From positions 1-26,489 of the forward strand of contig QHTZ01000102.1 in assembly GCA_003221005.1 (NCBI GenBank): a stretch of DNA of 26,489 nt, read 5' to 3'. Position numbers and translations under genes: made by a program. The notes below the pieces were generated by a model, which saw nothing but the letters and a program-made list of their open reading frames with translations, was not told the DNA's origin and ran no database searches. This document shows, in pieces, positions 1,207-26,450 of the stretch (its first letter is position 1; every line of letters begins with the position of its first letter). The DNA comes from Gemmatimonadota bacterium. Its GTDB lineage: Bacteria > Gemmatimonadota > Gemmatimonadetes > Gemmatimonadales > GWC2-71-9.

Positions 1207-1256
1207 GAGCGCATGCCACCTCGACGCGGACATGTCGCCATCTCGGCGCCGGACAT
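1203..1256 (-). CDS. Putative leaderless upstream peptide, 17 aa (MSGAEMATCPRRGGMRS)
   Basis: ATG at 1256 lies 7 nt after a TAAAGT -10 box; its TGA overlaps the GTG start at 1206 (GTGA). Confidence 0.4.
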   Translation of the reverse strand: MSGAEMATCPRRGGMRS

Positions 1257-1263
1257 TGATTCG

Positions 1264-1297
1264 ACTTTATGTGGCGGACCGGCGTCTGAAAATGAGC
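1264..1297 (-). promoter_or_regulatory. Putative promoter GCTCATTTT-N19-TAAAGT
   Basis: Same spacing as the motif at 5112, 10091 and 13872; GGGACT begins 28 nt upstream (1325, minus strand). Confidence 0.6.
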
Positions 1298-1345
1298 CAG
1301 GTTGCCGATTGGCGCCCAGAGTCCCGGAGGCGAGCGGGACAAACA

Positions 1346-1379
1346 CCCCATCGCGCCCTTCCAGTCATCGAGGTAGCGT
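1346..1379 (+). promoter_or_regulatory. Putative leaderless promoter CCCCATCGC-N19-TAGCGT
   Basis: CCCAT core at the conserved spacing; the in-frame GTG of the aminotransferase lies 7 nt after the -10 box. Confidence 0.5.
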
Positions 1380-1386
1380 CAAGACA

Positions 1387-2538
1387 GTGCTCAGAGGTCT
1401 CCGGCCCGAGGCTGCTCGCGTCACCCTGAACAGCCATGTGGCCTTCGTCGATCTTCGTGCGCAGACGCGTGCGCTGCACCCGGCACTGATCGCTGCGATC
1501 GAGACGGTGTTGAGCCGCGGGGACTACGTTCTGGGCGATGACCTGGAGCGCTTCGAGGCCGAGTTCGCGGCCTTCTGCGGGACCGGCCATGCCGTTGGCG
1601 TCGATTCCGGCCTCTCGGCGCTCGAGCTCGCCCTGCGCGCGGCAGATATCGGACCGGGGGACGAGGTCATCACCCAGGCAAACACCTTTATCGCCACCGT
1701 CGCGGCGATCCTTGCGGTGGGGGCGCGACCCGTCCTGAGTGATTGCGACGAGCAGGGCGGAATGGATCCGGCGGCCGTCGAGGCCTGCGTCTCGCCGCGC
1801 ACGCGGGCCGTCGTCCCAGTCCATCTCTTCGGCCGCATCGGAGAGATCGAGGTGATCCTGGCGCTGGCCGCGACACACGGCCTCGCGGTGATCGAAGATG
1901 CCTGTCAGGCGCACGGGGCCGTGTGGCTTGGCAAACGGGCGGGCAGCTTCGGCCTCGCCGGCGCGTTCAGCTTCTATCCCTCCAAGAACCTCGGCGCATT
2001 CGGCGATGGTGGAATGCTGGTCACGAACTCCGCGGCGCTCGCAGACAAGGTGCGACTCCTGCGGTCCTACGGCCAGCGGGTCAAGTACGTGCATGAGACG
2101 ACTCCGATGAACCATCGCCTGGATACGCTGCAAGCCGCGATTCTTCGGGTCAAGCTTCCGCACCTCGACAGCTGGAACTATCGCCGGCGCAGGCTCGCGG
2201 CCTCGTACATGGAGCGCCTTGGCGGCCTGCCGATCGGACTCCCCTGGGCCGAAGAGGACGGACGCCACGTCTATCACCTGTTCGTCATCGACGTGGACCG
2301 CCGCGACGAACTCCGCGCCGCCCTGGCATCGGACGGCATCGAGACCGGCATTCACTACCCCGTCCCGCTTCACCGCCAGCCTGCTCTGGCGGCGCTCGGC
2401 TATCGAGAGGGCGCTTTCCCCCGCACCGAACGCCTGGCCGAACGCAGCCTCTCCCTGCCCATGTACCCCGAGCTCCCGGTGGACCACCTGGAGCACGTCG
2501 CCACCTCGATCCGCCACTTGGTTGAAGGTTGGGCTTGA
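1387..2538 (+). CDS. DegT/DnrJ/EryC1/StrS-family PLP-dependent nucleotide-sugar aminotransferase
   Basis: VAFVDL, GPGDEVI, VIEDACQAHGA, FSFYPSKNLGAFGDGG (PLP lysine), HVYHLFVI, GIHYPVPLH, LSLPMYP. Start set at GTG 1387 (leaderless position); GTG 1438 is an alternative and ATG 1213 is probably too far upstream. Confidence 0.93.
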   Translation: MLRGLRPEAARVTLNSHVAFVDLRAQTRALHPALIAAIETVLSRGDYVLGDDLERFEAEFAAFCGTGHAVGVDSGLSALELALRAADIGPGDEVITQANTFIATVAAILAVGARPVLSDCDEQGGMDPAAVEACVSPRTRAVVPVHLFGRIGEIEVILALAATHGLAVIEDACQAHGAVWLGKRAGSFGLAGAFSFYPSKNLGAFGDGGMLVTNSAALADKVRLLRSYGQRVKYVHETTPMNHRLDTLQAAILRVKLPHLDSWNYRRRRLAASYMERLGGLPIGLPWAEEDGRHVYHLFVIDVDRRDELRAALASDGIETGIHYPVPLHRQPALAALGYREGAFPRTERLAERSLSLPMYPELPVDHLEHVATSIRHLVEGWA

Positions 2539-5111: not shown

Positions 5112-5145
5112 GCCCATTTCGGCGCCCTGTGATCAGCCCTAGCGT
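5112..5145 (+). promoter_or_regulatory. Putative promoter GCCCATTTC-N19-TAGCGT
   Basis: Exact 9-mer and spacing shared with 10091 and 13872; GGGACTG at 5083, 29 nt upstream. Confidence 0.62.
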
Positions 5146-5194
5146 CGTTTGCGAAAGCAATTTTTCGTCACCCCTGTCTCACCGCATCGTCAAC

Positions 5195-9932: not shown

Positions 9933-9967
9933 AGGCTAGCCCATGCCGCCATCCCCGATAAATGGGA
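9933..9967 (-). promoter_or_regulatory. Putative promoter TCCCATTTA-N20-TAGCCT
   Basis: CCCATTT core; the -10 box ends 12 nt before the sugar-transferase ATG. Confidence 0.5.
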
Positions 9968-10013
9968 AACAGCCGAATACCGGATAGGCCCGAGCCCGAG
10001 GCATGGCCGCCAT

Positions 10014-10043
10014 GTCCCAGGACTTTGGCCCAGGGCCTGGGAC
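10014..10043. repeat. 8-bp inverted repeat GTCCCAGG-N14-CCTGGGAC in a divergent promoter region
   Basis: Read directly from the sequence; carries the recurring GTCCC/GGGAC element. Confidence 0.5.
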
Positions 10044-10090
10044 GGGGGCAGGCCCGACAGAGGGTACGAGGCGGCGGCTCCACGCCGAAC

Positions 10091-10124
10091 GCCCATTTCT
10101 ACCGGCTTGGCGACCACCTACGCT
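10091..10124 (+). promoter_or_regulatory. Putative promoter GCCCATTTC-N19-TACGCT
   Basis: Exact 9-mer and spacing; GGGTAC at 10062, 29 nt upstream. Confidence 0.62.
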
Positions 10125-10138
10125 TGCCCGGGGAAAGG

Positions 10139-11284
10139 TTGTCCATAGCCCTCGACATCGCGCGGAAGGCAAACGGAATACGCCGGCTTCCTACGCTCGG
10201 TCGCCGGGAGTCACCGTCCGCCGTCGAGGCCGTCGGCGAACCGGAGATACAGATCGGCGTCATCGGCTACGGGTACTGGGGACCGAACCTGGTCCGCAAC
10301 TTCTGGGACATCCCCGCATGTCGGGTTCGCGCAGTGAGCGACAAGCGCGAAGGCCAGCTGACGCTGGCAGCGGCGCGCTACCCGGCGATCACAACCACCA
10401 CCGACTGCCACGCGCTGCTCGCGGACCCCGCCGTGGATGCGGTGGTGATCATGACCCCAGTGTCCACGCATTTCGAGCTTGCGCTTGAAGCGTTGCGGGC
10501 CGGTAAGCACGTGCTGGTCGCCAAGCCCATCGCCACGAGCTCCGAGCAGGCGGCCGTGCTCATCGAGGAGGCGGAGCGGCGAAATCTTGTGTTGATGGTC
10601 GACCACACGTTCATCTACACGGACGCCGTGAGGCGCATCAAGCAGCTGGTCGACGATGGCAGCCTCGGGCGGCTCTATTACTACGATTCGGTCCGAGTCA
10701 ACCTCGGGCTCTTCCAGCACGACGTGAACGTCCTGTGGGACCTGGCGGTCCACGACTTATCGATCATGGACTACGTCCTGGGCGAGCAGCCGCGCGCTGT
10801 CGCGGCGACCGGGGCAGCCCACATCCCCGGCCAGCCGGTCAACATCGCGTACCTGACCTGCTTCTTCGACAGCAACCTGCTCGCGCATCACCACGTGAAC
10901 TGGCTGGCGCCGGTCAAGGTGCGGCGCACGCTCGTCTCCGGGGAGCGAAAAATGATCGTGTACGACGATTTGGAGCCGAGTGAGAAAGTCAAGCTGTACG
11001 ACCGCGGGGTCACGCTCAACAGTGAACCGGAACGAGTGGCTGAATCCATGATCAATTACCGGACCGGTGACATGTGGGCGCCGCAGATCAGCCTGACCGA
11101 GGGCCTGCGAGTGGAGGCCAATCATTTCCTGGAATGCATCCGGGATGGCCTGCAGCCGCTGTCCGACGGCCACGCGGGCTTGCGGGTGATCAGCCTGCTC
11201 GAAGCGGCCAGCCGGTCGCTCGCGCATCGAGGCCAGCTCGTGGAAACGTCCGCCGGTCTGGCTCGAGGGCAGCTGGCGGTCTAG
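10139..11284 (+). CDS. Gfo/Idh/MocA-family NAD-dependent oxidoreductase (nucleotide-sugar dehydrogenase)
   Basis: IGVIGYGYWGPNLVRNF, AGKHVLVAKP, LMVDHTFIY, RVNLGLFQHDVNVLWDLAVHD, WLAPVKVR. Start uncertain; TTG 10139 follows the predicted promoter and GGGAAAGG. Confidence 0.9.
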   Translation: MSIALDIARKANGIRRLPTLGRRESPSAVEAVGEPEIQIGVIGYGYWGPNLVRNFWDIPACRVRAVSDKREGQLTLAAARYPAITTTTDCHALLADPAVDAVVIMTPVSTHFELALEALRAGKHVLVAKPIATSSEQAAVLIEEAERRNLVLMVDHTFIYTDAVRRIKQLVDDGSLGRLYYYDSVRVNLGLFQHDVNVLWDLAVHDLSIMDYVLGEQPRAVAATGAAHIPGQPVNIAYLTCFFDSNLLAHHHVNWLAPVKVRRTLVSGERKMIVYDDLEPSEKVKLYDRGVTLNSEPERVAESMINYRTGDMWAPQISLTEGLRVEANHFLECIRDGLQPLSDGHAGLRVISLLEAASRSLAHRGQLVETSAGLARGQLAV

Positions 11285-11346
11285 GTAGGACGGGTAAGGA
11301 GCTGACAGCCGTCGATACCCCGGCCCCTGTCGCAGCGCACCTTCCC

Positions 11347-15400: not shown

Positions 15401-16425
15401 AGCCGATCGCCGGACGTCGACTTGTGGTCGCCTGGGACGAGTCCCAGCCGCGAACCCGCGCCCTTGGTCCGGCCCTGGGGGGCGAATCCCACCTTATATA
15501 TGGTGGCTGGCCAGGGCGGCAGGTCGCCCTCCTCCCGTTGCGGTATCTCGCCGACGCTTCACGGATGTGGCGGGTGCTGCGCAGCCGACGTCCGGAAGCC
15601 CTGGTCGTGATCTCGCCGCCAACCGTTGCGCCGCTGGTGGGGTGCGTCTGGAGCCTGGTCCATCCGTGCCTCCTCGTCGTTGACTGCCATACCGCCGCCC
15701 TTCATTCGCCGAAATGGGGCTGGACGCTGCCCCTCCACCGCCTCCTCTTCTGTCGCGCTGACGCGGTTCTGGTCCACACCGAGGAAGATGAGGCGCGAGT
15801 CAGCCGATGGGGTGTTCCGGCCTTGCTGCTGCCGGATGACCTGCCCGATGCTGACCAGGCGGATCCGTCCTTTCGGAGCACCAGCGTCCCGCGGGTCGTG
15901 GTCGCCGGCAGCTTCGACCGTAACGAGCCGGTCGCGCTCACGCTCGCCGCGGCTGCACTCCTTCCGGACATGGAGGTGCGGTTGACGGGCGATGTGCGGC
16001 GGCTTGCCCCGAACGTGCGCTCGAAAGCGCCCGCCAACGCCGTCTTCACGGGATATCTCTCTTACCCGCAGTTCCTCGGCGAGCTCCTGACCGCCGACGT
16101 GGTGGCGGCGTTCAGCACCGATCGGCACATCATGAATCGAGCCGCCTTTGAGGCGGTCGGCCTCGGCCGTCCTCTCGTCCTATCCGATCTCCCAGGCCTC
16201 CGGGCTCGATTCGGGGAGGCGGCCGTGCTCTGTCGAAACGAAGCGGCGGCGATGGCTCAGGCCATCCGCCAGGCGCACCGTGACGGGCAAGAGCTCGCCA
16301 AGCTCAGCCAGGTCCTCCGGGGCCGGCTGCAGGCCCAGCGAGAGGCCGCCCTCGCCGAGTTGATGTCGATGATGGAGATGGCCTCGGCCGGCTGGTCCCG
16401 CGGCCGGGTGCGCTCAGCGTCGTGA
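15397..16425 (+). CDS. GT4-like (GT-B) glycosyltransferase
   Basis: LVVISPP, LVVDCH, ADAVLVHT, VVVAGSFDRNEP, FTGYL, ADVV, AAFEAVGLGRPLVLSD; GTGA overlaps at both ends. Confidence 0.88.
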   Translation: MKPIAGRRLVVAWDESQPRTRALGPALGGESHLIYGGWPGRQVALLPLRYLADASRMWRVLRSRRPEALVVISPPTVAPLVGCVWSLVHPCLLVVDCHTAALHSPKWGWTLPLHRLLFCRADAVLVHTEEDEARVSRWGVPALLLPDDLPDADQADPSFRSTSVPRVVVAGSFDRNEPVALTLAAAALLPDMEVRLTGDVRRLAPNVRSKAPANAVFTGYLSYPQFLGELLTADVVAAFSTDRHIMNRAAFEAVGLGRPLVLSDLPGLRARFGEAAVLCRNEAAAMAQAIRQAHRDGQELAKLSQVLRGRLQAQREAALAELMSMMEMASAGWSRGRVRSAS

Positions 16426-17738
16426 CCGCCGGCCTCGTTGCCCGAGGCACGACTCTCATGCGGAGCGGGCTCATTCGCACCGCCATGGGTCTCTACGCCA
16501 TCCAGGCCAGCAGCTGGCTGGTGCCGCTGGCGACGATCTTCTTCCTGGCCCGCAGGCTGGGTCCTGAGCACTGGGGGCTCCTCATGTTCATGCAGGGTGC
16601 GGCCGCCTACGTGATCTTCCTCGTGAGCTATGGCTTCACCTATTCGGCCACCCGTGAGGTTGCTCGCAATCGCGGCGACCCGGACAGGCTCGCAGACATT
16701 CTCGCCGGCGTCCTCGGCGCCAAGGTGACGTTGGCCATCCTCTCACTCCTGATCGTCATCCCGGCAAGCCTCCTTGTCCCGGCCATCCATCGCAGCCAGG
16801 ACCTCCTCTGGCCGACCATGCTCTGGGCGTTTGCCTGGGCCTTCAGCGCGAGCTGGTACTACCAGGGACTTGAGCGCATGGGGGTCGCGGCCGGATGCGA
16901 AGCGTCGGCTCGCGTTCTCTCCCTGGCCGGCATCCTGGTGCTGGTGCGGTCCCCGAACGACACATGGAAGGTGCTCGCCATCCAGGGTGGTCTGGTCTTT
17001 GTCGCCGTCCTCGTCGAGACGGCGCTCGCGTATCGCCAGGTGGGCTTTCGAATGCCTACCCCTCGACTCGTGTGGAAGACGCTCCGCTGGGGCTGGAGCA
17101 TGTTCCTGCTCGGAGGTGCGCTCAGTCTCTACACGATCGGAAACGGTTTCATCCTCGGGCTCTTCGCATCTTCAACCGTGGTTGGCTATTACATGGGCGC
17201 CGAACGCATCAGCAAGAACTTCGCCACCCTGCTCAGCCCGATCACCCAGGCCGTCTTCCCTCGGACCAGTCACCTCGCCGTGCATGCTCGCGGCGAGGCG
17301 GCCAGGCTGACCCGGACGAGCCTCTTCGTGATGGGCGGCACCGCCTGCGCCATAGGCGTCCTGGTCTTCTTTGGCGCCCCGTTTCTGGTTCGCGTGGTCC
17401 TCGGGCCAGGTTTCGAGCCTGCGGTCGTGGTCCTCAGAATCCTGGCCTGCCTGCCGCCGCTGATCGTGGCGAGCAACGTCCTCGCGGTGCAGTGGATGCT
17501 GGCGCTGGGCCTGGACCGTCTGGTCAACACCCTCATGTTCTCGGCCGGAGTGCTGAACGTAATTCTGGCGGTGGCGCTGGTGCCCAGGTACATGCACGTC
17601 GGCATGGCGATCGCGGTGGTCGCCGCTGAAGCCTTGGTCACGTTCGGGCTCTACGCCGTGGTCCGGATCAAGCAAGTCGACCCGCTGGCGATCGCCAGGC
17701 TCGACGAGCAGGCAGAGCCTGCAAGGCTGTCGGCCTGA
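16422..17738 (+). CDS. wzx: Wzx flippase (polysaccharide transporter)
   Basis: FLARRLGPEHWG, YGFTYSATREVA, WYYQGLERM, VGYYMGAERI, QAVFPR, VLGPGF; about 12 hydrophobic segments. Confidence 0.92.
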   Translation: MTAGLVARGTTLMRSGLIRTAMGLYAIQASSWLVPLATIFFLARRLGPEHWGLLMFMQGAAAYVIFLVSYGFTYSATREVARNRGDPDRLADILAGVLGAKVTLAILSLLIVIPASLLVPAIHRSQDLLWPTMLWAFAWAFSASWYYQGLERMGVAAGCEASARVLSLAGILVLVRSPNDTWKVLAIQGGLVFVAVLVETALAYRQVGFRMPTPRLVWKTLRWGWSMFLLGGALSLYTIGNGFILGLFASSTVVGYYMGAERISKNFATLLSPITQAVFPRTSHLAVHARGEAARLTRTSLFVMGGTACAIGVLVFFGAPFLVRVVLGPGFEPAVVVLRILACLPPLIVASNVLAVQWMLALGLDRLVNTLMFSAGVLNVILAVALVPRYMHVGMAIAVVAAEALVTFGLYAVVRIKQVDPLAIARLDEQAEPARLSA

Positions 17739-17740
17739 CG

Positions 17741-19138
17741 GTGGGCGCGAGCTTGATCGAGGCCATCATGCCGCGGATCATCGCTCTGATCCCGCTCGTC
17801 CCGGCTATGTGCGCAGGGCTCGCGTTTCTCGTCTTGACCTTCTGGCGCCCCGCAGCGGGCTGCGGCCTGCTCGTGCTGTTGACGCCGCTGACGACTGGCC
17901 TGGGTCGAGGCACGATCGTGCCCTTCCTGCGCCCAAACGAAGCCCTGCTGCTCGCTCTCCTCGCGGGCCTTGCCCTGCACCGCCTTCACCACCCGCATCC
18001 GCGACCGATCACGAGCCTCGACCTGGCGGTCGGAAGCTTTGCCATCGGCACGGTCGTCGTGCCCTCCCTCGTGCTTTTGGTCTCGAACCAACCCGGTCTC
18101 CCGGGCGCGGACACACTCCATGATGTACTGGCGCCGGCGCAGTTCCTGCTGGTCTATCTGGTCTTCTCGAGGACCCCGTTCTCGAGCCGCAGCGTGCCGA
18201 TGATCCTCAACCTCGCGATGCTCGCCGGCGTCATTGTGGGTCTGGTGGCCATCGCGGAACTCGTGGACGTGGGCGGGATTCGGGAGCTGATGGCCAGGTA
18301 CTACCCGGTTCCCGTCACGCCAAGCTGGGATCCGGTCTACAGGCCGATGTCGACGCTCGGCCACTACAGCGCGGTCGGGGCTTTCGGAGCCATGAACTTC
18401 ACCCTGGCCCTGTCCCTGGCGACCGCGCGCCATCCCGACTTCTCCGGACCCTGGTTGATCGTGGTGATGGTGGTGAACCTGGCGGCCGTGGTCGTCAGCC
18501 TGACGTGGGCGCCGCTGTTGGTGATCCCGCTCGTGGCCGTGATCATCCTCTGGCACGGACGTCACGTACCGTGGGAGCTTGGCGTCACCGTCGTAGCCCT
18601 CGCCGTCGCCTTCGTCGTTTTCTGGCCGGCCGTCAGCGAGCGCATCGCCCAGCAGGGTCTGGCCTCGTCAGTCGGCCTGGTGGTCCCCCAGACCTTTCAG
18701 ACTCGCCTTGACCACTGGCAGCAATTCTTCCTGCCGGCGCTTGCGGACCACGTCTGGCTTGGGAGCGGGACGATCATCCCGAGCATCGTCCCGACGCCAT
18801 TGACCGATTTCGTCGACAACGAGTACCTGCGTGACGCTTTCCGGGCGGGTGTCGTGGGTCTGATGCTCCTGCTGGTCATGTTGCTGGCGATCGCCCTGAC
18901 CGGGTGGAGGAGCCGGCGGGCCGGCTCCGATCCGACGGCGCGGAGTCTCGGAAGCACGTGCCTGGCCCTTGTCGTATTCCTGGCGCTGATTGGAGTGACC
19001 GCCGAATACCTCTTCTTCGGCGGCGTCTCTCAGGAGTTCGCGATGCTGGTCGGGCTGCTGGCGGCTCAGAACCTGGTCGAGGCCCGCGTGGAGCAGCGAT
19101 CAGCGACGGGCTCGCTCACATCCCATAGCCCGGCTTGA
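17741..19138 (+). CDS. Wzy-like polymerase / O-antigen ligase-family membrane protein
   Basis: Polytopic; RPMSTLGHYSAVG, TRLDHW, WLGSG and VDNEYL...GVVGL match the Wzy_C-type loop layout; directly follows wzx. Confidence 0.8.
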   Translation: MGASLIEAIMPRIIALIPLVPAMCAGLAFLVLTFWRPAAGCGLLVLLTPLTTGLGRGTIVPFLRPNEALLLALLAGLALHRLHHPHPRPITSLDLAVGSFAIGTVVVPSLVLLVSNQPGLPGADTLHDVLAPAQFLLVYLVFSRTPFSSRSVPMILNLAMLAGVIVGLVAIAELVDVGGIRELMARYYPVPVTPSWDPVYRPMSTLGHYSAVGAFGAMNFTLALSLATARHPDFSGPWLIVVMVVNLAAVVVSLTWAPLLVIPLVAVIILWHGRHVPWELGVTVVALAVAFVVFWPAVSERIAQQGLASSVGLVVPQTFQTRLDHWQQFFLPALADHVWLGSGTIIPSIVPTPLTDFVDNEYLRDAFRAGVVGLMLLLVMLLAIALTGWRSRRAGSDPTARSLGSTCLALVVFLALIGVTAEYLFFGGVSQEFAMLVGLLAAQNLVEARVEQRSATGSLTSHSPA

Positions 19139-20153
19139 TCGTGCCTGCGGTAGCCGCCCCGACAGCCTGGATCATCTCGGTCCACGGGGCGGAGAAGTCG
19201 CCCGCATCCCAGTTCTGGTAGAGCCCGAAGCCGGACTCATGCATCACGAAGTGCACCCAGGAGACGCCCAGCTGGTTGAAGTCCGCGAGATCGTCCGGCA
19301 CGTACGCGGTGCCCTGCGAGAGGGGCGCGCCCACCTCGCCGACGAGAAACGGCCGCTTTGTCGGATTTGAGGGATCGGCGCCCGGAAAGTTGCAGCCCTC
19401 GGTCCCCATCGGCGCGTAGCAATGACCCGACCAGAGGATGCGGTCGCCATTGACCGATGGCAGATCCCAGTCGGCTGAGCTGACCTCGAGCAGTACGAAA
19501 TGGTTTGGATCGGCGGCGGTAATCGCGTCGTAGACCCCTTGCGCCCAGGAGTCGTAAGCGGCGACTGAGGGCGGCGCGGGCTCGTTGAACACGTCGTATC
19601 CGGCGATCGTGGAGTTGGCCTGGTAATGACTGGCGAAGTCGGCCCAGAAGTCAATCAGCGCCTGCTGGTTGGGCGCCGAGCTCCAGAATCCGTCCTGGCC
19701 ACCGTATCCACCGTCGGTGCCTCCGGGCGGCTCGTACATGACGGGGATCAACCAGAGATGATTGGCCATCGCCCAGGTGACTTGCCGATCGACCACGGCG
19801 AAGAACCTGGCGCGGTCAGCCGCGTACCAGGAATAGTCGAGACCGAAACGGATCACGTTCTCGCCCAGGACGCCGCTCGCCTGCTCATAGTCGGCGGTGT
19901 TGACGTTGATCAGGCTGATGTCCGGCCCGCCGCAGCAGGACAGCGCCGGCTCGTTGTTGAAATTCTCACCCCGCAGCACCACGTCCTGGCCTCCGTAGAC
20001 GAGCTTGCCGTCGCTGACAGTGAGGTAAGAAGAATCCGTGACAGGACGGGCCAAGTCTGCGGTCGCCGAAACCGAGGCGGGCTGCGCGGAGCTGGCCGGC
20101 GTCAGCAGCGCGGCCAGCAAGCTTGCAAGCAGGGCGATCTGGGTGTGACGCAA
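19116..20153 (-). CDS. Secreted GH5-family glycoside hydrolase
   Basis: Signal peptide (MRHTQIALLASLLAALLTPASSA; TTG 20153 with GGAG 6 nt upstream, GTG 20177 alternative), LRGEN, NVIRF, IAGYDVFNEP (acid/base), SGHCY, PFLVGEVG (nucleophile). Confidence 0.87.
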   Translation of the reverse strand: MRHTQIALLASLLAALLTPASSAQPASVSATADLARPVTDSSYLTVSDGKLVYGGQDVVLRGENFNNEPALSCCGGPDISLINVNTADYEQASGVLGENVIRFGLDYSWYAADRARFFAVVDRQVTWAMANHLWLIPVMYEPPGGTDGGYGGQDGFWSSAPNQQALIDFWADFASHYQANSTIAGYDVFNEPAPPSVAAYDSWAQGVYDAITAADPNHFVLLEVSSADWDLPSVNGDRILWSGHCYAPMGTEGCNFPGADPSNPTKRPFLVGEVGAPLSQGTAYVPDDLADFNQLGVSWVHFVMHESGFGLYQNWDAGDFSAPWTEMIQAVGAATAGTIKPGYGM

Positions 20154-20315
20154 AGTCGGCTCCAACAGCCAGTTCACCGCACGACCCCGGAACCCGTCAA
20201 CCCGGCAAGAGCCACCGCGCATGGGCGCTCGTCCCAAGCAGGCACGATGCTGTCCCGAGGCGGAGCTGGCGAACCCATTGCCGAGTGGCGTGCCCGCTGC
20301 TTTGGTTGAACCGAG

Positions 20316-20888
20316 ATGGGGAGCCGGGGAGTCACGATTCACCAGACCGCAGAGGTGTCGCCAGATGCCGCCGTCGGTGCGGGAACCAGGGTCTGGAACG
20401 AAGCCCAGGTCCGGGAAGGCGCCCGGGTCGGTCGCGACTGCATCCTCGCCAAGGGGGTGTACGTGGACGCCGGCGTCGTGGTCGGCGATCGCGTCAAGCT
20501 CGAGAATCGGGTGTCCCTGTTTCGGGGAGCGCGTCTGGGTTCGGGCGTGTTCGTCGGACCCCACTCATGCCTGTTGAACGACAAGCGGCCTCGCGCGACC
20601 ACCCTGGGAGGCAGGCCGAAGCGGGAGGCGGATTGGATCGTGAGCGGCGTGACGGTCGCCGAAGGAGCCTCGATCGGGGGCGGCTGCACCGTCCTGCCGG
20701 GCGTCCACATCGGACGTTTCGCGATGGTGGGAGCGGGCGCGGTTGTCACCCGAAACGTACCGGATCACGGTCTGGTGGTAGGCAATCCCGCGCGGCTGGT
20801 CGGCTACGTCTGCGAATGCGGTTGCCGGCTGCAGGCGGACGGCACCTGCGCGAGCTGCGGCGTTCGCCTCGAAGCTATGCCGGCCTGA
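20316..20888 (+). CDS. WbpD/WxcM-like hexapeptide-repeat sugar N-acetyltransferase with Cys-rich C-terminus
   Basis: IHQTAEVSPDAAVGAGTRVW, GVFVGP..LLNDKRPR, GASIGGGCTVLPGV, AMVGAGAVVTRNVP, VVGNPARLVGYVCECG...CASCG. Confidence 0.9.
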   Translation: MGSRGVTIHQTAEVSPDAAVGAGTRVWNEAQVREGARVGRDCILAKGVYVDAGVVVGDRVKLENRVSLFRGARLGSGVFVGPHSCLLNDKRPRATTLGGRPKREADWIVSGVTVAEGASIGGGCTVLPGVHIGRFAMVGAGAVVTRNVPDHGLVVGNPARLVGYVCECGCRLQADGTCASCGVRLEAMPA

Positions 20889-21285
20889 AGGCGGGGCCCG
20901 CCTCGACCAGCTCGGTGAGGATCGAACCTCTGAGCATGACGAAACACACCCGCCGGCCTTCGAAGGCCACCGCCGGCGTCGGCCGACCGAGGAGCCGCGC
21001 CCCCCTGGCCTGGAGCTTTTGCAGCTCCGGCTCCAGCGCGTCAGCCAGGAATGCCTGGTGGTAGATGCGCACACCTCTCGCGAGCCAGCCGTCGAGCACT
21101 GTCGATCCGGGTAGCTGCTCGAGCACCTCGAGCTGCGGTCCGCAGCCACGCAAGAACAGGCCCCTGACGCCCAGCACCGGATCGGTGAACGGCGTTCCCA
21201 CCGCCGCATAACCGAGGCTGGACAGGGCGTCGACCTCCGCGGTCAGGTCGGGCGAGGCGACGCCAAGATGATGAAAGGTCAGCAC
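20875..21285 (-). CDS. VOC-family protein (methylmalonyl-CoA epimerase/glyoxalase-like)
   Basis: FHHLGVASPDL, LEVLE, IYHQAF, AVAFEGRRVCF, LTELVE give an H/E/H/E metal-ligand pattern. Confidence 0.85.
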   Translation of the reverse strand: MLTFHHLGVASPDLTAEVDALSSLGYAAVGTPFTDPVLGVRGLFLRGCGPQLEVLEQLPGSTVLDGWLARGVRIYHQAFLADALEPELQKLQARGARLLGRPTPAVAFEGRRVCFVMLRGSILTELVEAGPAFRPA

Positions 21286-21875
21286 GCTGTTTCAGCGCTC
21301 CTGCATGCGACCGAGGCCACGCCCGCCGGCAGCCGCCACGACCACACGCGCCATTCCGGTGTCGTCCGCTCGGATAGGTCAGCGCCCAGCCAGTCGAGCA
21401 GGTTGGCGCCATCTGCTTTCGCCATCGCCTCCTTCTGCGTCCACAGCCGGTAGAAGCCTGCCCGGCCGCCGGAGGGGCCGGCACGTCGAAGGCGGCGTGC
21501 TTCTTCGGGTGCGAAGAACCGGTCCGCCAGGCCCCTCCAATCCAGGCCGGGCCGGAACAGCTCCACGTCGACCCCGACCTCGCCTCCTTGAGTCAGCGCG
21601 TAGAGGACGCGGTCTCTTGAGTGCGACACGCTGAAGCGAAGCGGTGGCTCACGCGCTGGAGATATCAAGATCGGCTTGCCATTGGACTCACGTCCGACAT
21701 GGATGCTGCGCGGCGTGACGCCCAGATAGCGCGCGAGGCGGACGCAAAGCTGGCTGTGACCGGCTTGCCGTTTCAGCGAGCCCAACCAGACGTGCACCTC
21801 TCCCGGCTCCAGCGGAGCAAAGTCCTCGATCTGCTTCGAGCGCTTGTCAGGAGCGGCCAGGACAAGAAGCTTCAC
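21279..21875 (-). CDS. Sfp-type 4'-phosphopantetheinyl transferase
   Basis: NGKP, FSVSHS, VGVDVE, FYRLWTQKEAMAKADG. Confidence 0.92.
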   Translation of the reverse strand: MKLLVLAAPDKRSKQIEDFAPLEPGEVHVWLGSLKRQAGHSQLCVRLARYLGVTPRSIHVGRESNGKPILISPAREPPLRFSVSHSRDRVLYALTQGGEVGVDVELFRPGLDWRGLADRFFAPEEARRLRRAGPSGGRAGFYRLWTQKEAMAKADGANLLDWLGADLSERTTPEWRVWSWRLPAGVASVACRSAETAC

Positions 21876-22369
21876 GCCCGGATCGGCTTCAGGTTGCGGT
21901 AGAACTCGACCGCCGACGCGTTCGGACCGAGGGGCACTCCACAGCGCGCCACCGGTCGGGCCGGATTGCCCTGCACAAGGGTCATCTCCTGTACGTTGCC
22001 GGACACCACGCTGCCGGCGGTCACCACCGCCCCACGACCGATCGTGACGCCGGGCAGGATGATCGCGCCCGGGCCGACCCAGGCCTGATCTTCGACCCTG
22101 ACGGAGACGGTACCGCGGGCCAAAAGCGTCGGGGTCACGTCATTGAAGTGGGCGATGATCATGCTGCGCGCACCGAGGAAAACGTCGTTCCCTATCGAGA
22201 CCAGCTCCGGATGCATGGTCTCGATGATCACGTCGGTGCTGATGAAGACCCCCTGGCCGATGTCCACCCCTCTCCAGCGGTGCAGGCGCAACCTGAGGTT
22301 GCTTCCTCCAGGAAGGAACAGAGCAGCCACCTGGAGAAGGCGGATCTTGACAGCGCGGAGAGTCTTCAT
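21872..22369 (-). CDS. Left-handed beta-helix (hexapeptide-repeat) acyltransferase
   Basis: RGVDIGQGVFI, PELVSIGNDV, IIAH, AWVGPGAIILPGVTIGRGAVVTAGSVV, VQGNPAR. Confidence 0.88.
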   Translation of the reverse strand: MKTLRAVKIRLLQVAALFLPGGSNLRLRLHRWRGVDIGQGVFISTDVIIETMHPELVSIGNDVFLGARSMIIAHFNDVTPTLLARGTVSVRVEDQAWVGPGAIILPGVTIGRGAVVTAGSVVSGNVQEMTLVQGNPARPVARCGVPLGPNASAVEFYRNLKPIRA

Positions 22370-22375
22370 GTGCGC

Positions 22376-22675
22376 CTAAGCGGAGCGCGCCTCGCCCTGG
22401 GACAGCTTCATCCGCAGCAATGCCTGCAGCTCGCCGAAAGTGGCCGACGCCCGCAGCTCCTCGAGCTCATCGTCATCGAAGCGAACGGCGAAGCTCTTCT
22501 CCACTTCGAAGATGACGTTGATCTGAGAGAGCGAATCCCATCCGGGGATGTCGGTGTATGGGGTGGCGGCCGCAAGCCGAACATCCGGCACCCGGAACAG
22601 TTTCTGCACTATCTCGACCAGCGTCGGGTGCAGTGCCCCGAGATCGCCTCCACCTACGAAGGGGAGGGCTCTCAT
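22376..22675 (-). CDS. Acyl carrier protein
   Basis: DIPGWDSLSQINVIFEVEKSFAVRF (DSL phosphopantetheine serine) and TFGEL. ATG 22675 is 7 nt after TATACT. Confidence 0.88.
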   Translation of the reverse strand: MRALPFVGGGDLGALHPTLVEIVQKLFRVPDVRLAAATPYTDIPGWDSLSQINVIFEVEKSFAVRFDDDELEELRASATFGELQALLRMKLSQGEARSA

Positions 22676-22682
22676 CGACTCG

Positions 22683-22717
22683 AGTATATGAACGAGGCCG
22701 GAAGGGCCGGCATGAGC
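22683..22717 (-). promoter_or_regulatory. Putative leaderless promoter GCTCATGCC-N20-TATACT
   Basis: Near-consensus -10 box, ATG 7 nt downstream, GCTCAT shared with the 1297 promoter. Confidence 0.6.
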
Positions 22718-22747
22718 TTCTTCGCCATAGTCCCAGGACAAGACGCC

Positions 22748-22776
22748 CATCGGGATTCCCGATGTCCCAAGGGACA
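22748..22776. repeat. Two overlapping palindromes: CATCGGGA-T-TCCCGATG and TGTCCC-AA-GGGACA
   Basis: Perfect 8+8 and 6+6 inverted repeats between the divergent ACP and FkbH starts. Confidence 0.55.
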
Positions 22777-22804
22777 ACGCGGTAGCGCAGGATCGTTTTT
22801 CACC

Positions 22805-22834
22805 TTGCGGCGACGTGCACGCCCGGCACACACT
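22805..22834 (+). promoter_or_regulatory. Possible sigma-70-type promoter TTGCGG-N18-CACACT
   Basis: Ends 8 nt before the FkbH ATG; imperfect -10 box. Confidence 0.3.
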
Positions 22835-22842
22835 CGAATGGC

Positions 22843-24843
22843 ATGGACGGAGCAGGGATCCTCGCGCCCAAGCTCGACCCTACCCGAGAAGATCTGCAGC
22901 GTGCTCTCGATCGCCAGCTGAAGGCAATCCCGGCCAGCGGCGCGGTGGGGTTCGAACGGTCCCTGGAGATCGCCGCCGCCTGCCGGCAGCTCGGACAGCC
23001 AGACTCGGCGTACGGCTGGCTGCGGCAGGCGGCACTTGAGGCAGAGACCTTCCTCCAGTGGCAGGCGGCGGCGCTCACCTTCAGGGACATGAGACGCGAA
23101 GCCGCTCCCAGGGCCAGGCGCAAGGCCCGAGTGGCGGTGCTGGGCAGCTATACGACGTCCCAGCTGGTGCCGCTCCTCGGTCTGGCGGCGTTCCGAGAAG
23201 GGGTCGACGTCGAAATCTATGAGAGCAGGTACGGGCAGTACAGCCAGGACCTGATCGACCCCGAGAGCGAGTTGCACGCCTTCCACCCCGAGGTGGTCAT
23301 CCTTGCCGTTCACGAGGGGACGCTCCGCTTGCCGGAGCTGAGCGACGATCCAGACGGCGCGGTCGGCGCCGAGCTCGAACGCTGGCGGGAGCTCTGGGCG
23401 CTGGCAAGCGAGCGTTCGTCGGCGCGCGTGATCCAGCACACGTTTGTGACCCACCCGGCCCTACCGCTCGGACACATGGCGGGCAGGCTCGGGTCGCGTT
23501 ACGCGATGATCCAGATGCTCAACTCTCGCATGATGCGAGAGGCCCCCGCCGAGGTCGCGTTCGTCGATTGCGAGAGGCTGGCTTCGTGGTGCGGGAAGCG
23601 CGCCTGGTTCGACGACCGCTACTGGTACCTGACCAAGCAGGCGGTCGCCCCGGACGCCCTGCCGCTGCTCGCCTGTCACACCGCCGCGGTGCTTGCGGCG
23701 ACGCTTGGCTTGAGCAGGAAATGCCTGGTCCTCGACCTCGACGGCACCCTGTGGGGCGGAATCATCGGCGAGGATGGGCTGAGCGGGATCACCCTGGGCG
23801 GCGGCCCGGCCGGAGAGGCCTTCGTCGACTTCCAGTCGTTCCTCCTCGGTCTGAAGAAGAAGGGAATCCTCCTGGCGGTCGCCTCCAGGAATGACGACTC
23901 CGATGCCCGGCTGCCCTTTGAAAAGCACCCCGACATGCGCCTACGGCTGGCCGACTTCGCCGCCTTCGTCGCCGGCTGGAAGGACAAGGCGAGCGATCTG
24001 CGCGACATCGCCGGCGAGCTGGGGCTGGGACTCGACGGCCTGGTCCTTGTCGACGACAGCCCCGTGGAGCGCGCGCTCGTGCGCGCTCAGCTGCCCGAGG
24101 TCGACGTGGTGGAGCTGCCAGCGGATCCGACGGAGTACGTCCGGACGCTGACGGGCTACCTCGGCCTCGAGACGGTGACTCTGACGGACGAGGACACTCG
24201 GCGCACCGAGCAGTATGTGGCCCGGCGCGAAGCGAGCCGGCTGGCGGGGGCCACCGGCAGTCTTGCCGAGTTCCACCGCAGCCTTGAGATGTCGGCTCGT
24301 GTGACGCCCTTCGACCAGCAGAACATGGCACGCGTCGCGCAGCTGATAGCAAAGACGAACCAGTTCAACCTGACCGGGCGGCGCCCCGGACTCGCTGAAC
24401 TGAATGCGCTCGTGCGGGATCCGAACACCCTGCATCTGTGCCTCAGGCTGCGGGACCGCTTCGGCGACCACGGCCTGGTCAGCGTCCTGCTCGGACGGCA
24501 GGACGGCGAGGCGATTGAGATCGACGTCTGGGTGATGAGCTGCCGTGTGCTCGGCCGCACCGTCGAGGCCAAGATGATCGAGCACCTCTGCCGAGAAGCC
24601 GCCGCCCGCGGCAGTCGCCGCGTGCGCGGAACCTATATCCCTACGACCCGCAACGAGCTGGTGCGAGACCTGTACGCGGATCTCGGCTTTGAACTGATCG
24701 CCGACACGGCCGGAACGACTACCTGGGAATATGACCTGTCAGGCAGGGGAGCGATCCGCAACGATCTCATCGCGGAGTGGGCGGACGATGGGTCGCGCCC
24801 GGCCGTCTCCACGCCGGAGGACGCCATCGCGTTGCCAAGATGA
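22843..24843 (+). CDS. fkbH: FkbH-like HAD-IIIC protein (glyceryl-ACP synthase family) with N-terminal extension
   Basis: VAVLGSYT, KCLVLDLDGTLWGGIIGEDG, GILLAVASRND, LVDDSPVER, QLIAKTNQFNLT, DRFGDHGLV, WVMSCRVLGR (acyl-carrying Cys). Confidence 0.93.
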   Translation: MDGAGILAPKLDPTREDLQRALDRQLKAIPASGAVGFERSLEIAAACRQLGQPDSAYGWLRQAALEAETFLQWQAAALTFRDMRREAAPRARRKARVAVLGSYTTSQLVPLLGLAAFREGVDVEIYESRYGQYSQDLIDPESELHAFHPEVVILAVHEGTLRLPELSDDPDGAVGAELERWRELWALASERSSARVIQHTFVTHPALPLGHMAGRLGSRYAMIQMLNSRMMREAPAEVAFVDCERLASWCGKRAWFDDRYWYLTKQAVAPDALPLLACHTAAVLAATLGLSRKCLVLDLDGTLWGGIIGEDGLSGITLGGGPAGEAFVDFQSFLLGLKKKGILLAVASRNDDSDARLPFEKHPDMRLRLADFAAFVAGWKDKASDLRDIAGELGLGLDGLVLVDDSPVERALVRAQLPEVDVVELPADPTEYVRTLTGYLGLETVTLTDEDTRRTEQYVARREASRLAGATGSLAEFHRSLEMSARVTPFDQQNMARVAQLIAKTNQFNLTGRRPGLAELNALVRDPNTLHLCLRLRDRFGDHGLVSVLLGRQDGEAIEIDVWVMSCRVLGRTVEAKMIEHLCREAAARGSRRVRGTYIPTTRNELVRDLYADLGFELIADTAGTTTWEYDLSGRGAIRNDLIAEWADDGSRPAVSTPEDAIALPR

Positions 24844-26450
24844 CGGCGCGAGTGGTGGGAGTCTTCCCTCCACGGGCGCGCGCCCTCCGGCGCCGCCTGT
24901 TCGATGCCCTCGAGCTCGCCTTTCCCATTCGGTTCGAGGGCCGTGATCAAGGCGACTTCGGAGGCCTCGATGCCGCCGTTTTCGTGGACGCACCGGCGCC
25001 AACCCAACGCCCACCATGTCCCTCTCTCTGGTTCGAACGCGGTGACGTCGAACGTCCGCAGAACGGTAAAGTCCGGCTCTCGAGTGACACGTTGCTCGAT
25101 GGACGCCTGAGGGGTCGGGTCCTGACGGATGGCGAGGCCGACGCCGCACCGGTCCTGCGTCCATCTTTCCCCGCGCGTGTGCTTGCGGCCACGGCGAACG
25201 GCCCGGTATGGGTTACTTCGCAGGACGCCGGGCCGCCGCGTCGCTACCTCGCCGCGTTCGCCCCCGCCGAGCTGGAAGTGGACGAGCCGCTGCGCGCGCG
25301 TTTCCGATCCGGATCATTCATCGGTCTGCTTCCACTCGTGCACCTTCTGCGCGAGATCAACACCGAGTGGTCCTGGTCCGATCCGCCACCCCGCGCTTGC
25401 TTCATCATCGACGACCCCAACCTCCACTCCCTGACCTACGGCCACGTCGACTTTCGCCGCCTGGTGGCGCATGCCGCGCGTGGCGGCTACCACGTGGCCA
25501 TTGCCAGCACTCCCATCGACTATGGCTTTGTGCACCCGGCGGCGCGCGCCCTCTTCGCCGCCCACACAGGACAGATCTCGCTGGCGATTCACGGCAACAA
25601 CCACGAGCGGCACGAGTTGTCCGGCGTTCGCAGTGAGGCGGAGGCGCTGGCCATCGCCGCGCAAGCCATCCGCCGCAGCGAGCGCCTCGAGCGGCAGTCA
25701 GGCCTGCGTGTCCCGCGGGTCATGTGCGCGCCACATGAAGAGTGCGGCCGGCTCATGCAGACCGCTCTTTTTCGTCTCGGGTTCGACGCCCTGTGCAAGG
25801 AGCCGAGCTGGCGAGTCAGCCACGATGCCGACAACCCCGAAGCCGTCCTCACCGGATGGGAGCCCGCTCAGACGCTCGCGGGCCTGCCCGTCCTCCCTCG
25901 CTATCGACTGTTGGGCGACGAGGAGGACCTGGTCTTCCGCTCATACCTGAACCTTCCGATTCTTCTGTACTTCCACCACTGGGACCTCGCCGGCGGGCCG
26001 GAAGTGCTCGATGCCGCCGCTGACCTCGTCAACCGCGTCCGGCCGCACGATTGGATGTCGCTTGCCGACTTGTGCCGATCCAACGTGGTCTCCCGCCGAA
26101 CGGGCGAGACGCTGGTCGTCAGGCCCTACGCGCGGCGGGTCTCGGTCCGTGTCGACGCAGATGTGCGGCGGATCGTCGTCGAAGCAGCACCGTCCGAACC
26201 GCCGGTCGAGGTACGCGTCTCGTGCGGCTCGCTGTCCACCCTCGGGCCGTCGGGGCGGTCGTTGTCCCTTTCTGGCCCCCTCGCCTCGCGGGCAGAGATT
26301 GAAATGGTGTCGGCGGAGGCTTTGTCCGGCGAGGCTTTCCCCCCACCGCCGCCACGGATGTGGCCAGCAGTTCGCCGAGCCATGACCGAATCCCGCGACC
26401 GTCTCGGGCCCCTGTCCGACCGGCTTTGGGGACGTCCCGCTAGCCGATAG
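24840..26450 (+). CDS. Hypothetical protein with a polysaccharide deacetylase-like domain
   Basis: ATG 24840 overlaps the FkbH stop (ATGA); ACFIIDDP, SLAIHGNNH, VMCAPHE and LYFHHWD follow the CE4-like motif order. Confidence 0.65.
   Translation: MTARVVGVFPPRARALRRRLFDALELAFPIRFEGRDQGDFGGLDAAVFVDAPAPTQRPPCPSLWFERGDVERPQNGKVRLSSDTLLDGRLRGRVLTDGEADAAPVLRPSFPARVLAATANGPVWVTSQDAGPPRRYLAAFAPAELEVDEPLRARFRSGSFIGLLPLVHLLREINTEWSWSDPPPRACFIIDDPNLHSLTYGHVDFRRLVAHAARGGYHVAIASTPIDYGFVHPAARALFAAHTGQISLAIHGNNHERHELSGVRSEAEALAIAAQAIRRSERLERQSGLRVPRVMCAPHEECGRLMQTALFRLGFDALCKEPSWRVSHDADNPEAVLTGWEPAQTLAGLPVLPRYRLLGDEEDLVFRSYLNLPILLYFHHWDLAGGPEVLDAAADLVNRVRPHDWMSLADLCRSNVVSRRTGETLVVRPYARRVSVRVDADVRRIVVEAAPSEPPVEVRVSCGSLSTLGPSGRSLSLSGPLASRAEIEMVSAEALSGEAFPPPPPRMWPAVRRAMTESRDRLGPLSDRLWGRPASR

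Follow-up and report, generated by a model that had tools for sequence, protein, structure and literature searches.

This study concerns a predicted acyl carrier protein (ACP)-dependent acylation module in a 26,489-nt stretch of DNA from a Gemmatimonadota bacterium (GenBank assembly GCA_003221005.1, contig QHTZ01000102.1, positions 1 to 26,489), referred to here as the window. The window is an entire contig (C12) of a 2.79-Mb assembly of 141 contigs that is 93.9% complete, and its G+C content is about 64-70%. The module consists of genes for a VOC metalloenzyme, an Sfp-type 4'-phosphopantetheinyl transferase (PPTase), a left-handed beta-helix (LbH) acyltransferase designated LbH2, a dedicated ACP and an FkbH-type loader, which is followed by a gene for a 536-residue protein, U536. 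The ACP, LbH2, PPTase and VOC genes form one minus-strand unit, joined by a 6-nt gap and then by overlaps of 4 nt and 7 nt, and this unit diverges from the plus-strand FkbH gene across the 167 bp that separate ACP from FkbH. The ATG of U536 overlaps the FkbH stop codon (ATGA) on the plus strand. A preliminary description of the window had named the FkbH, ACP, LbH acyltransferase, PPTase and VOC genes and had proposed that the last four are tightly coupled and divergent from FkbH. Open reading frames and profile matches place all five genes where that description had put them, and the gap and overlaps bear out the arrangement. It had overlooked the FkbH-coupled U536 gene (24840-26450, +), a second LbH gene designated LbH1 (20316-20888, +) and the Wbp-like amino-sugar genes of the locus.

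FkbH-type enzymes load glyceryl from 1,3-bisphosphoglycerate onto an ACP. The window protein (22843..24843, plus strand, 666 aa) is a predicted glyceryl-ACP synthase whose TIGR01686 score, 279 bits or, when the genome was searched, 281 bits, exceeds the cut-off of 146.65. It has an N-terminal FkbH_N domain (PF21211, 39.9 bits), a HAD-IIIC phosphatase domain (TIGR01681, 50.4 bits versus 35.75) and a C-terminal domain that contains Cys567. The HAD catalytic motifs (DxDxT, S/T, K and DD) are all present. The window residue is found in at least 95% of 81 homologues at D298, D300, T302, S348, K382, D404, D405 and C567, and in 100% at C567, which we take to be the carrier of the acyl intermediate. 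Residues 78-444 match PDB entry 3slr (BF1531) with 208 bits. The profile score, the HAD motifs and the invariant C-terminal Cys support the earlier assignment of this protein to the D-glyceryl loader family. FkbH acts with stand-alone ACPs according to the available part of one report (PMC7489565).

The dedicated ACP is encoded at 22376..22675 on the minus strand and is 99 aa long when counted from a conserved Met in the open reading frame at 22376-22831. Its PP-binding match is marginal, at 20.5 bits for the long open reading frame (cut-off 20.8) and 22.1 bits in the genome search. Ser48 lies in a G-W-D-S-L motif, and W46-D47-S48 are invariant in 35 FkbH-linked ACPs. The PPTase (21279..21875, minus strand, 198 aa) matches PF01648 (ACPS) with 48.9 bits versus 25. 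Its matches below cut-off are HetI (86.6 bits), AcpT (68.4 bits) and AASDHPPT_N (21 bits, cut-off 27).

The preliminary description had named, in advance, a polyketide synthase (PKS), nonribosomal peptide synthetase (NRPS) or MBOAT gene outside the window that uses the ACP as an observation against its proposal. Because the window is the whole contig, the genome was searched, and none was found. Profile searches of the contigs of the 93.9%-complete genome returned no MBOAT match, no condensation domain and no PKS-type ketosynthase. There are two full ketosynthase matches, in open reading frames of 415 and 436 aa, the ordinary size of single enzymes, along with three weak ones. The genome has two PPTases, the one in the window and one on contig C120, and two carrier proteins, the one in the window and one beside a ketosynthase on contig C106. 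As far as an assembly of 94% completeness can show, the window ACP and PPTase have no visible client except their own neighbors. The module is thus self-contained, as had been proposed. Among 80 FkbH loci from other genomes, described below, the PPTase gene adjoins FkbH only in L001, L002 and L009, which represent this lineage, and the window cassette, which brings its own PPTase, is the most self-contained version among the loci compared.

LbH2 (21872..22369, minus strand, 165 aa) resembles acyltransferases of the WcaF/maltose-O-acetyltransferase type and has a Hexapep match of 45 bits, above the cut-off. Its best NCBIfam match is the WcaF family (NF007797, 73 bits versus a cut-off of 192), and its best PDB match is maltose O-acetyltransferase 3srt (48 bits). 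H30 and H74 are invariant in 40 homologues. H74 falls within two columns of the His-Pro of 3srt, a position that we take to hold the catalytic His. LbH2 is not a member of the LpxD family (NF002060, 24.4 bits versus a cut-off of 207), and the LpxA model is not among the best 25 of its 40 matching families. A search for LbH2 orthologues (58-97% identity) found them only in L001, L002, L009 and L007, and in all four loci the gene lies less than 2 kb from FkbH-ACP. Among 251 genomes sampled from the window's phylum and 401 from that of L007, one in each set has an orthologue, and in both cases it is a known carrier of the cassette. Metagenome contigs yielded 14 near-identical loci (at least 83% identity) and one weak match; these provide no independent contexts. 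The predicted complex of an LbH2 trimer with the ACP scored 0.01 and 0.15 against a mark of 0.32, which speaks neither for nor against binding.

The VOC protein (20875..21285, minus strand, 136 aa) is a metalloenzyme with the topology of methylmalonyl-CoA epimerase (MMCE) and a Glyoxalase_4 match of 49.5 bits. Its AlphaFold 2 model has a pLDDT of 92.7. Ten FkbH-linked VOC proteins all have H6, H76 and E125, and conservation of D35 and E53 among them is 90% or higher, so the metal ligands H6, E53, H76 and E125 are conserved. The second of these ligands is Glu (E53); S. coelicolor MMCE has Gln at this position. The acid/base positions were compared using the MMCE residues that we take to be catalytic. 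E125 aligns with the C-terminal Glu of MMCE, and a Phe occupies the place of the upstream Glu in the genome's own MMCE, with the conserved D35 nearby. The FkbH-linked VOC proteins and the C. acetobutylicum proteins of PDB entries 2qh0 and 3hdp have in common the stretch P-A-x-A-(F/Y/I)-x-x-R-x-(V/I)-x-F; in the FkbH-linked proteins its P104, A105, A107 and R111 each reach 90% conservation or more. On this sequence evidence, the C. acetobutylicum "glyoxalase I" may belong to the FkbH-linked VOC subfamily rather than to the classical glyoxalases.

U536 (24840..26450, plus strand) has no Pfam or NCBIfam match and is not recognizable as a CE4 member by sequence. None of its 268 homologues has a functional name, those listed being called hypothetical protein. 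Its AlphaFold 2 model (pLDDT 91.4) has a NodB/CE4-like N-deacetylase fold with an NDST1-like N-terminal domain. Foldseek ranks highest the N-deacetylase portion of human NDST1 (E = 2.9e-8), PelA, ArnD and CE4 esterases, with a probability of 1.00 for NDST1, PelA, ArnD and the CE4 esterase 2cc0. The TM-score by target against the CE4 esterase 2cc0 is 0.60, and the Atlas structure entries for U536 name NodB and DUF2334. D191-D192-P-N-L, H251-G-N-x-H255, R354 and H379 are invariant in 38 sequences; the invariant D191-D192 and H251-x-x-x-H255 are as expected for an active NodB-type metal hydrolase. The modeled fold makes U536 a candidate for exposing a sugar amine. A 29% identical homologue adjoins FkbH in L007, and a Pfam polysaccharide deacetylase gene lies directly upstream of FkbH in L067. 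One U536 homologue, P0044 (926 aa), carries Pfam domains of the GT4 family. The C-terminal half of the 915-aa GT4 glycosyltransferase encoded in the window at 11074-13821 was considered as a paralogue of U536 and rejected (best BLASTP E = 7.4).

Gene neighborhoods were compared starting from 539 relatives of the FkbH query in species-representative genomes. Eighty loci were kept, and their neighbors were tallied with hidden Markov models built from Pfam-checked neighbors; with the window this gives 81 rows. In 76 of the 80 loci an ACP gene is found no more than 1.5 kb from FkbH, and in two of the four exceptions the contig stops shortly after FkbH. The window's phylum supplied 12 further FkbH loci, all 12 of them with an ACP gene beside FkbH. 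The neighbors in 18 Pfam-scanned loci include glycan genes for glycosyltransferases, Wzx, Wzy, Bac_transf, NeuB, LytR-Cps and polysaccharide deacetylase. The transferases near FkbH differ among the 81 rows: an LbH gene is next door in 12, an MBOAT gene lies within 5 kb in 31, and neither was detected in 38, most of which belong to one Acetobacteraceae clade. In this large FkbH-ACP clade (L021, L025, L028, L031, L033, L035 and about 30 other Acetobacteraceae-type loci) the flanks contain neither a detectable LbH nor a detectable MBOAT gene; at L021 the ACP gene is followed by a VOC gene and a gene for a 396-aa protein without a Pfam family.

The LbH rows are not scattered over the FkbH tree. 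All 12 fall with L004 in one group (SH-aLRT 97) that contains no MBOAT, and other FkbH clades pair with MBOAT. L004 is the row of this group without an LbH gene, and upstream of its FkbH the contig has just 74 bp left. Members of the group come from four or five phyla: Chloroflexota/Dormibacterota, Actinomycetota, Planctomycetota and Alphaproteobacteria. The LbH label requires two changes on the tree compared with a mean of 11.5 after shuffling; relatedness inflates such contrasts, and the spread across phyla is real. An adjacent LbH gene in 12 of the 13 rows of the window's FkbH clade supports the LbH enzyme as the user of the acyl-ACP, in agreement with the role given to it in the preliminary description. 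That description had also suggested looking for FkbH, ACP, VOC and LbH genes together in other loci. FkbH and ACP form a conserved pair, and the LbH gene recurs with them in one clade. The VOC gene is an optional accessory found beside FkbH-ACP in 10 of 81 rows. It co-occurs with LbH in the window lineage, with MBOAT in L026, L029, L042, L070 and L071, and in L047 with a fusion of AAC(3), DUF4910 and DUF2172 beside NeuB. Since the VOC protein travels with the loader and the carrier whatever the transferase, it would most simply act on the acyl-ACP.

The FkbH family was detected in 43 of 251 genomes sampled from the window's phylum (42 above the cut-off), and neither of the two other genomes from the window's genus yielded a match; FkbH is therefore a variable accessory. 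Carriers of related cassettes that are in culture include the strains of L008 (Hyphomonas pacifica), L044 (Acidisphaera sp.) and L077 (Mucilaginibacter sp.). Near-identical copies of the stretch occur in soil metagenomes. At least half of the sampled words were held by 13 of the 20 runs listed, and the 20 runs come from 17 studies; the recurrence shows that the stretch is not an assembly artefact. None of the 20 sequencing runs listed as holding the stretch is an RNA run. In L014, L051, L053 and L077 genes for a MaoC dehydratase and an SDR protein stand beside FkbH-ACP in place of the VOC gene, which hints at other kinds of tailoring of the acyl group. Dehydration of glyceryl-ACP followed by reduction would, judging by these gene families, give a lactyl-type group.

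These data lead to the following proposal. The Sfp-type PPTase, judged by its family and gene linkage, would convert the dedicated apo-ACP to holo-ACP. In the chemistry of its family, FkbH would then bind 1,3-bisphosphoglycerate, remove a phosphate with its HAD domain and transfer the D-glyceryl group to the ACP via the conserved Cys. The VOC protein may edit the resulting 2-hydroxyacyl thioester through a metal-bound enediolate, which is the weakest step of the scheme. Finally, the co-inheritance of FkbH-ACP with LbH genes suggests that LbH2 takes the phosphopantetheine-linked acyl group instead of acetyl-CoA and passes it to a sugar of the polysaccharide made by the same locus, perhaps after de-N-acetylation of that sugar. 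All steps would be cytoplasmic. We put the probability that glyceryl-ACP, possibly VOC-edited, is transferred in this way by LbH2 at roughly 60%.

Several observations weigh against this proposal, beginning with the VOC protein. The preliminary description had treated it as a methylmalonyl-CoA epimerase type of enzyme. It is not an MMCE orthologue: it scores 27.4 bits with the MMCE model TIGR03081, which has a cut-off of 114.95, and the genome has a separate, true MMCE on contig C3 that scores 132.9 bits. The closest structures found by Foldseek are 3hdp and 2qh0 of C. acetobutylicum, titled glyoxalase and Ni(II)-bound glyoxalase-I (TM-score 0.89-0.94, rmsd 1.4-1.5 A), and these entries are also its top sequence matches. 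MMCE structures follow with TM-scores of 0.74-0.81. E. coli glyoxalase I (1f9z), which we take to be domain-swapped, gives 0.36.

The rival explanation that survives best is that the VOC protein is not an epimerase but an enzyme of the glyoxalase-I or dehydratase type, in which case a group other than L-glyceryl would be transferred. Examples would be a lactoyl or other hydroxyacyl thioester that arises from the hemithioacetal of holo-ACP with a 2-oxoaldehyde, or a beta-elimination product of glyceryl-ACP (pyruvoyl or enol). The rank of the C. acetobutylicum glyoxalase-I entries ahead of the MMCEs and the Glu at the second metal ligand both favor such an activity, as do the four loci with MaoC and SDR genes instead of VOC, which suggest that the acyl group is often remodeled. 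On the other hand, with a 2-hydroxyacyl thioester already delivered by FkbH, a second route of loading would seem superfluous, and the reverse glyoxalase reaction is thermodynamically unfavorable. The gene cj1301, which is beside an fkbH-domain gene in C. jejuni, is annotated as an epimerase according to the available part of one report. We consider a non-epimerase VOC protein unlikely, while regarding it as the strongest of the competing explanations. As for the earlier suggestion that the VOC protein epimerizes an acyl thioester, the MMCE-type fold and the conserved metal ligands are consistent with it, and epimerization is one of several possible enediolate-type reactions. Inversion of C2 of glyceryl-ACP is chemically reasonable and, on the modeled structure, is our leading guess; L-glyceryl is the most likely single outcome of this step, with odds slightly short of even. 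Nothing was found in favor of the link that had been drawn to the L-glyceryl substituent of gellan.

LbH2 provides further points against the proposed transfer. Its nearest characterized relatives (WcaF, maltose and galactoside O-acetyltransferases) are acetyl-CoA-dependent, and its sequence carries no sign of ACP use. The wider LbH2 family, with 2397 matches, many of them at 55-60% identity, is large compared with the few FkbH-linked cases that were seen. The LbH genes adjacent to FkbH belong to two unrelated subtypes, one LbH2-like (L001, L002, L009 and L007) and one serine-acetyltransferase-like with stop-to-stop frames of about 215-250 aa, so the link between FkbH and LbH holds at the superfamily level only. 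LbH2 could accordingly be an ordinary acetyl-CoA-dependent sugar O-acetyltransferase that shares the operon, with glyceryl-ACP used by another, unrecognized transferase or by none. Such O-acetyltransferase genes are common in polysaccharide loci. This explanation has to contend with the position of the LbH2 gene between the ACP and PPTase genes, separated by only 6 nt from the first and overlapping the second by 4 nt, and with an FkbH clade in which 12 of 13 rows have an adjacent LbH gene and none has an MBOAT gene. The module also holds no other candidate acyltransferase, and the other LbH protein of the window is accounted for as WlbB-like. We judge the explanation to be improbable. A role of the module in making a small molecule or a lipid head group (tetronate-like, or a glycerate ester) unrelated to the polysaccharide is very improbable: the characterized pairs of FkbH and stand-alone ACP in the literature found do serve polyketide, tetronate or NRPS pathways, but the genome lacks condensation domains and PKS-type ketosynthases, the window has no FabH-like partner, and the module lies within a locus of Wzx, Wzy, glycosyltransferase and Bac_transf genes, with its relatives in glycan loci as well.

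The acceptor of the glyceryl group was considered in the light of the amino-sugar genes of the window. A DegT/DnrJ/EryC1 sugar aminotransferase of the WbpE/WlbC-like type (1213..2538, plus strand) matches PF01041 with 367 bits, and its best NCBIfam equivalogs are all below cut-off. A GFO/IDH/MocA oxidoreductase (9962..11284, plus strand; PF01408, 83 bits) resembles UDP-GlcNAc 3-dehydrogenases of the WbpB/WlbA type. It scores 159.5 bits with the UDP-N-acetylglucosamine 3-dehydrogenase model NF040723, for which the cut-off is 450, so the assignment is at the family level only; an enzyme of this family would help to supply a 3-amino sugar. LbH1 (20316..20888, plus strand, 190 aa) is a WlbB/WbpD-like N-acetyltransferase by its matches to PDB 3mqg (117.5 bits) and the WxcM-like 4mzu (115 bits), and it matches the NeuD/PglB/VioB model TIGR03570 with 105.5 bits, below the cut-off. 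By these similarities LbH1 is an ordinary WlbB-like enzyme of an amino-sugar pathway, together with the oxidoreductase and the aminotransferase, and stands outside the ACP unit.

The FkbH-coupled deacetylase-fold protein U536 and the WbpB-, WbpE- and WbpD-like genes favor a glyceroyl group that replaces an N-acetyl group. The O-acetyltransferase relatives of LbH2 favor an O-ester. We lean only slightly toward the first, in which the acceptor would be the amine exposed by U536 on a Wbp-type 2,3-diamino sugar and acetyl would be exchanged for glyceroyl. The alternative acceptor is a hydroxyl, the group acylated by the nearest characterized relatives of LbH2. The evidence against the proposal includes, at this step, the family-level nature of the Wbp-like assignments (WbpB, WbpE and WbpD), all of which are below equivalog cut-offs, and the narrow distribution of the link between U536 and FkbH, which was seen in the window lineage and one distant locus, L007. 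With the best five candidates per genome scored, U536 turned up in none of the other 250 genomes sampled from the phylum, 42 of which have FkbH.

The remaining genes of the window identify it as a Wzx/Wzy-type polysaccharide locus by Pfam and NCBIfam profile matches. They encode a Bac_transf initiating transferase (9270-9920), Wzx (16422-17738), a Wzy_C protein (17741-19138), GT2 and GT4 glycosyltransferases and a Wzz-like protein. The 915-aa GT4 glycosyltransferase already mentioned (11074-13821, +) is extended at its C terminus by a segment that matches Polysacc_deac_1 weakly (18.8 bits). A flavin monooxygenase-like gene (5129-6358, +; Pyr_redox_2/3 and a weak Lys_Orn_oxgnase match) stands beside a weak ATP-grasp gene (6214-7530, +), and the pair is flanked by methyltransferase genes at 4136-5023 and 7527-8993; these may add further sugar decorations. 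At the edge of the locus, an open-ended gene (1-1233, minus strand) with a strong match to DMFA2_C, the N,N-dimethylformamidase beta-subunit-like C-terminal domain (308 bits), adjoins the sugar aminotransferase gene. A GH5 glycoside hydrolase gene (19116-20564, minus strand) sits between the Wzx/Wzy genes and the LbH/FkbH unit, an order also seen in L002, the 91% relative. The Solirubrobacterales locus L006, which is distant, likewise has a GH5 gene (L006:5779-6924) between its Wzx and LbH/FkbH genes.

The proposed route was compared with known systems. The methoxymalonyl-ACP and tetronate pathways (tetromadurin Mad7/Mad8 and Mad14/Mad12; FK520 FkbH) share with the window a loader of the same family above the TIGR01686 cut-off, a dedicated small ACP, the HAD motifs and the C-terminal Cys. 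Unlike these pathways, the window lacks FkbK/FkbI-type dehydrogenases, an adjacent FkbG methyltransferase and a FabH-like tetronate enzyme, and its genome lacks PKS and NRPS. The window FkbH is also longer at its N terminus (by FkbH_N plus about 90 aa), and its acyl-ACP is predicted to end on a sugar. In the Dlt system (DltA, DltC, the MBOAT protein DltB and DltD) a dedicated carrier protein likewise passes a small acyl group on to a polymer of the cell surface, and the MBOAT genes near FkbH-ACP in 31 of 81 rows recall this arrangement. The window differs in that its genome has no MBOAT, transfer would be cytoplasmic via a soluble LbH enzyme, and loading would be by FkbH and not by an adenylating enzyme.

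Transfer from an ACP by an LbH enzyme has precedent. LpxA and LpxD are the classical acyl-ACP-dependent LbH enzymes, and in lipid A synthesis a sugar N-deacetylase (LpxC) is followed by an LbH acyltransferase (LpxD) that uses acyl-ACP. The proposed window route would share this logic of a deacetylase followed by an ACP-fed LbH enzyme. It differs in that LbH2 lies outside the LpxA and LpxD families, U536 is NodB/NDST1-like and does not have the LpxC fold, and the acyl group would be a C3 hydroxy acid instead of a fatty acid. The preliminary description had called an ACP-fed LbH transferase combined with an ACP-thioester epimerase an unusual route of glycan decoration. An LbH enzyme fed by an ACP is not unusual in kind, given LpxA and LpxD, whose models appear among the weak LbH matches, and "unusual" holds for the LbH2 subfamily and its substrate and not for the principle.

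De-N-acetylation followed by re-acylation of a di-N-acetylated sugar also has a counterpart in the Wbp/Vim pathway of Porphyromonas gingivalis and Tannerella forsythia. According to the available part of the source, VimE, a putative deacetylase, is proposed to take the acetyl group off C-2, and the freed amine then presumably receives an amino acid through VimA (PMC7468200). The window resembles this pathway (WbpA/B/E/D, the CE4 protein VimE and VimA) in having WbpB-, WbpE- and WbpD-like genes and a deacetylase-fold protein. In contrast, its acyl group would come from an ACP thioester via an LbH enzyme and would not be an amino acid transferred by the VimA N-acetyltransferase-like protein, which matches TIGR03019 (pep-cterm_femAB).

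The only published case found with a glyceroyl sugar decoration and an fkbH-domain gene in one glycosylation locus, within the portions of the reports available, is that of C. jejuni NCTC 11168. Strain 11168 carries 2,3-di-O-methylglyceroyl-pseudaminic acid (PMC3068675), and its flagellin glycosylation locus contains the fkbH-domain gene cj1302 beside cj1301, "annotated as an epimerase" (PMC7099621). The available text of these reports contained no link between the glyceroyl decoration and cj1302. The C. jejuni transferase is probably different from that of the window, since Cj1295, which has an aminopeptidase-like domain, is required there. A Bacteroidales locus (L047:34-7657) has the order GNAT, NeuB, FkbH, ACP, VOC, a fusion of AAC(3)-like, DUF4910, DUF2172 and HTH_47 domains, and TylF methyltransferase. 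This is a nonulosonic-acid context, and it resembles the C. jejuni case in which the aminopeptidase-like Cj1295 is needed for di-O-methylglyceroyl-pseudaminic acid.

No description of FkbH-ACP-fed glycan acylation was found in the literature searched, in which coverage of subscription journals is sparse. FkbH/ACP loading and ACP-fed LbH transfer are already known, and what would be new here is their use together in glycan decoration. Surface sugars of both pathogens and commensals can bear glyceric-acid (glyceroyl) groups, and a 2017 paper saw "a major challenge" in the genetic basis of N-glyceroylation of Tannerella pseudaminic acid (Pse5Am7Gra) (PMC5378307). A tentative generalization, which we regard as possible but somewhat against the odds, is that FkbH-ACP cassettes are the general genetic basis of glyceroyl decorations of glycans, including tailored groups that are possibly lactyl or O-methylglyceroyl, with LbH, MBOAT and AAC(3)/aminopeptidase-like enzymes as interchangeable outputs. 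The Tannerella Pse5Am7Gra and the Campylobacter di-O-methylglyceroyl-pseudaminic acid would be examples. In the window, an LbH enzyme, an ACP-thioester epimerase, an NDST1-like N-deacetylase and a PPTase of its own would together exchange acetyl for L-glyceroyl on a diamino sugar in the cytoplasm, and the MMCE-fold VOC protein would then be the first case of an epimerase that works on a 2-hydroxyacyl thioester bound to an ACP. If this generalization is true, FkbH and ACP, which supply a C3 unit from glycolysis, together with an exchangeable transferase would be concrete candidate genes for the glyceroyl question, and genes in polysaccharide loci that are now called "HAD-IIIC phosphatase", "acyl carrier protein" or "VOC family" would receive a better annotation. 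Carrier-protein chemistry would thereby extend from polyketides and the D-alanylation of teichoic acids to the decoration of polysaccharides generally.

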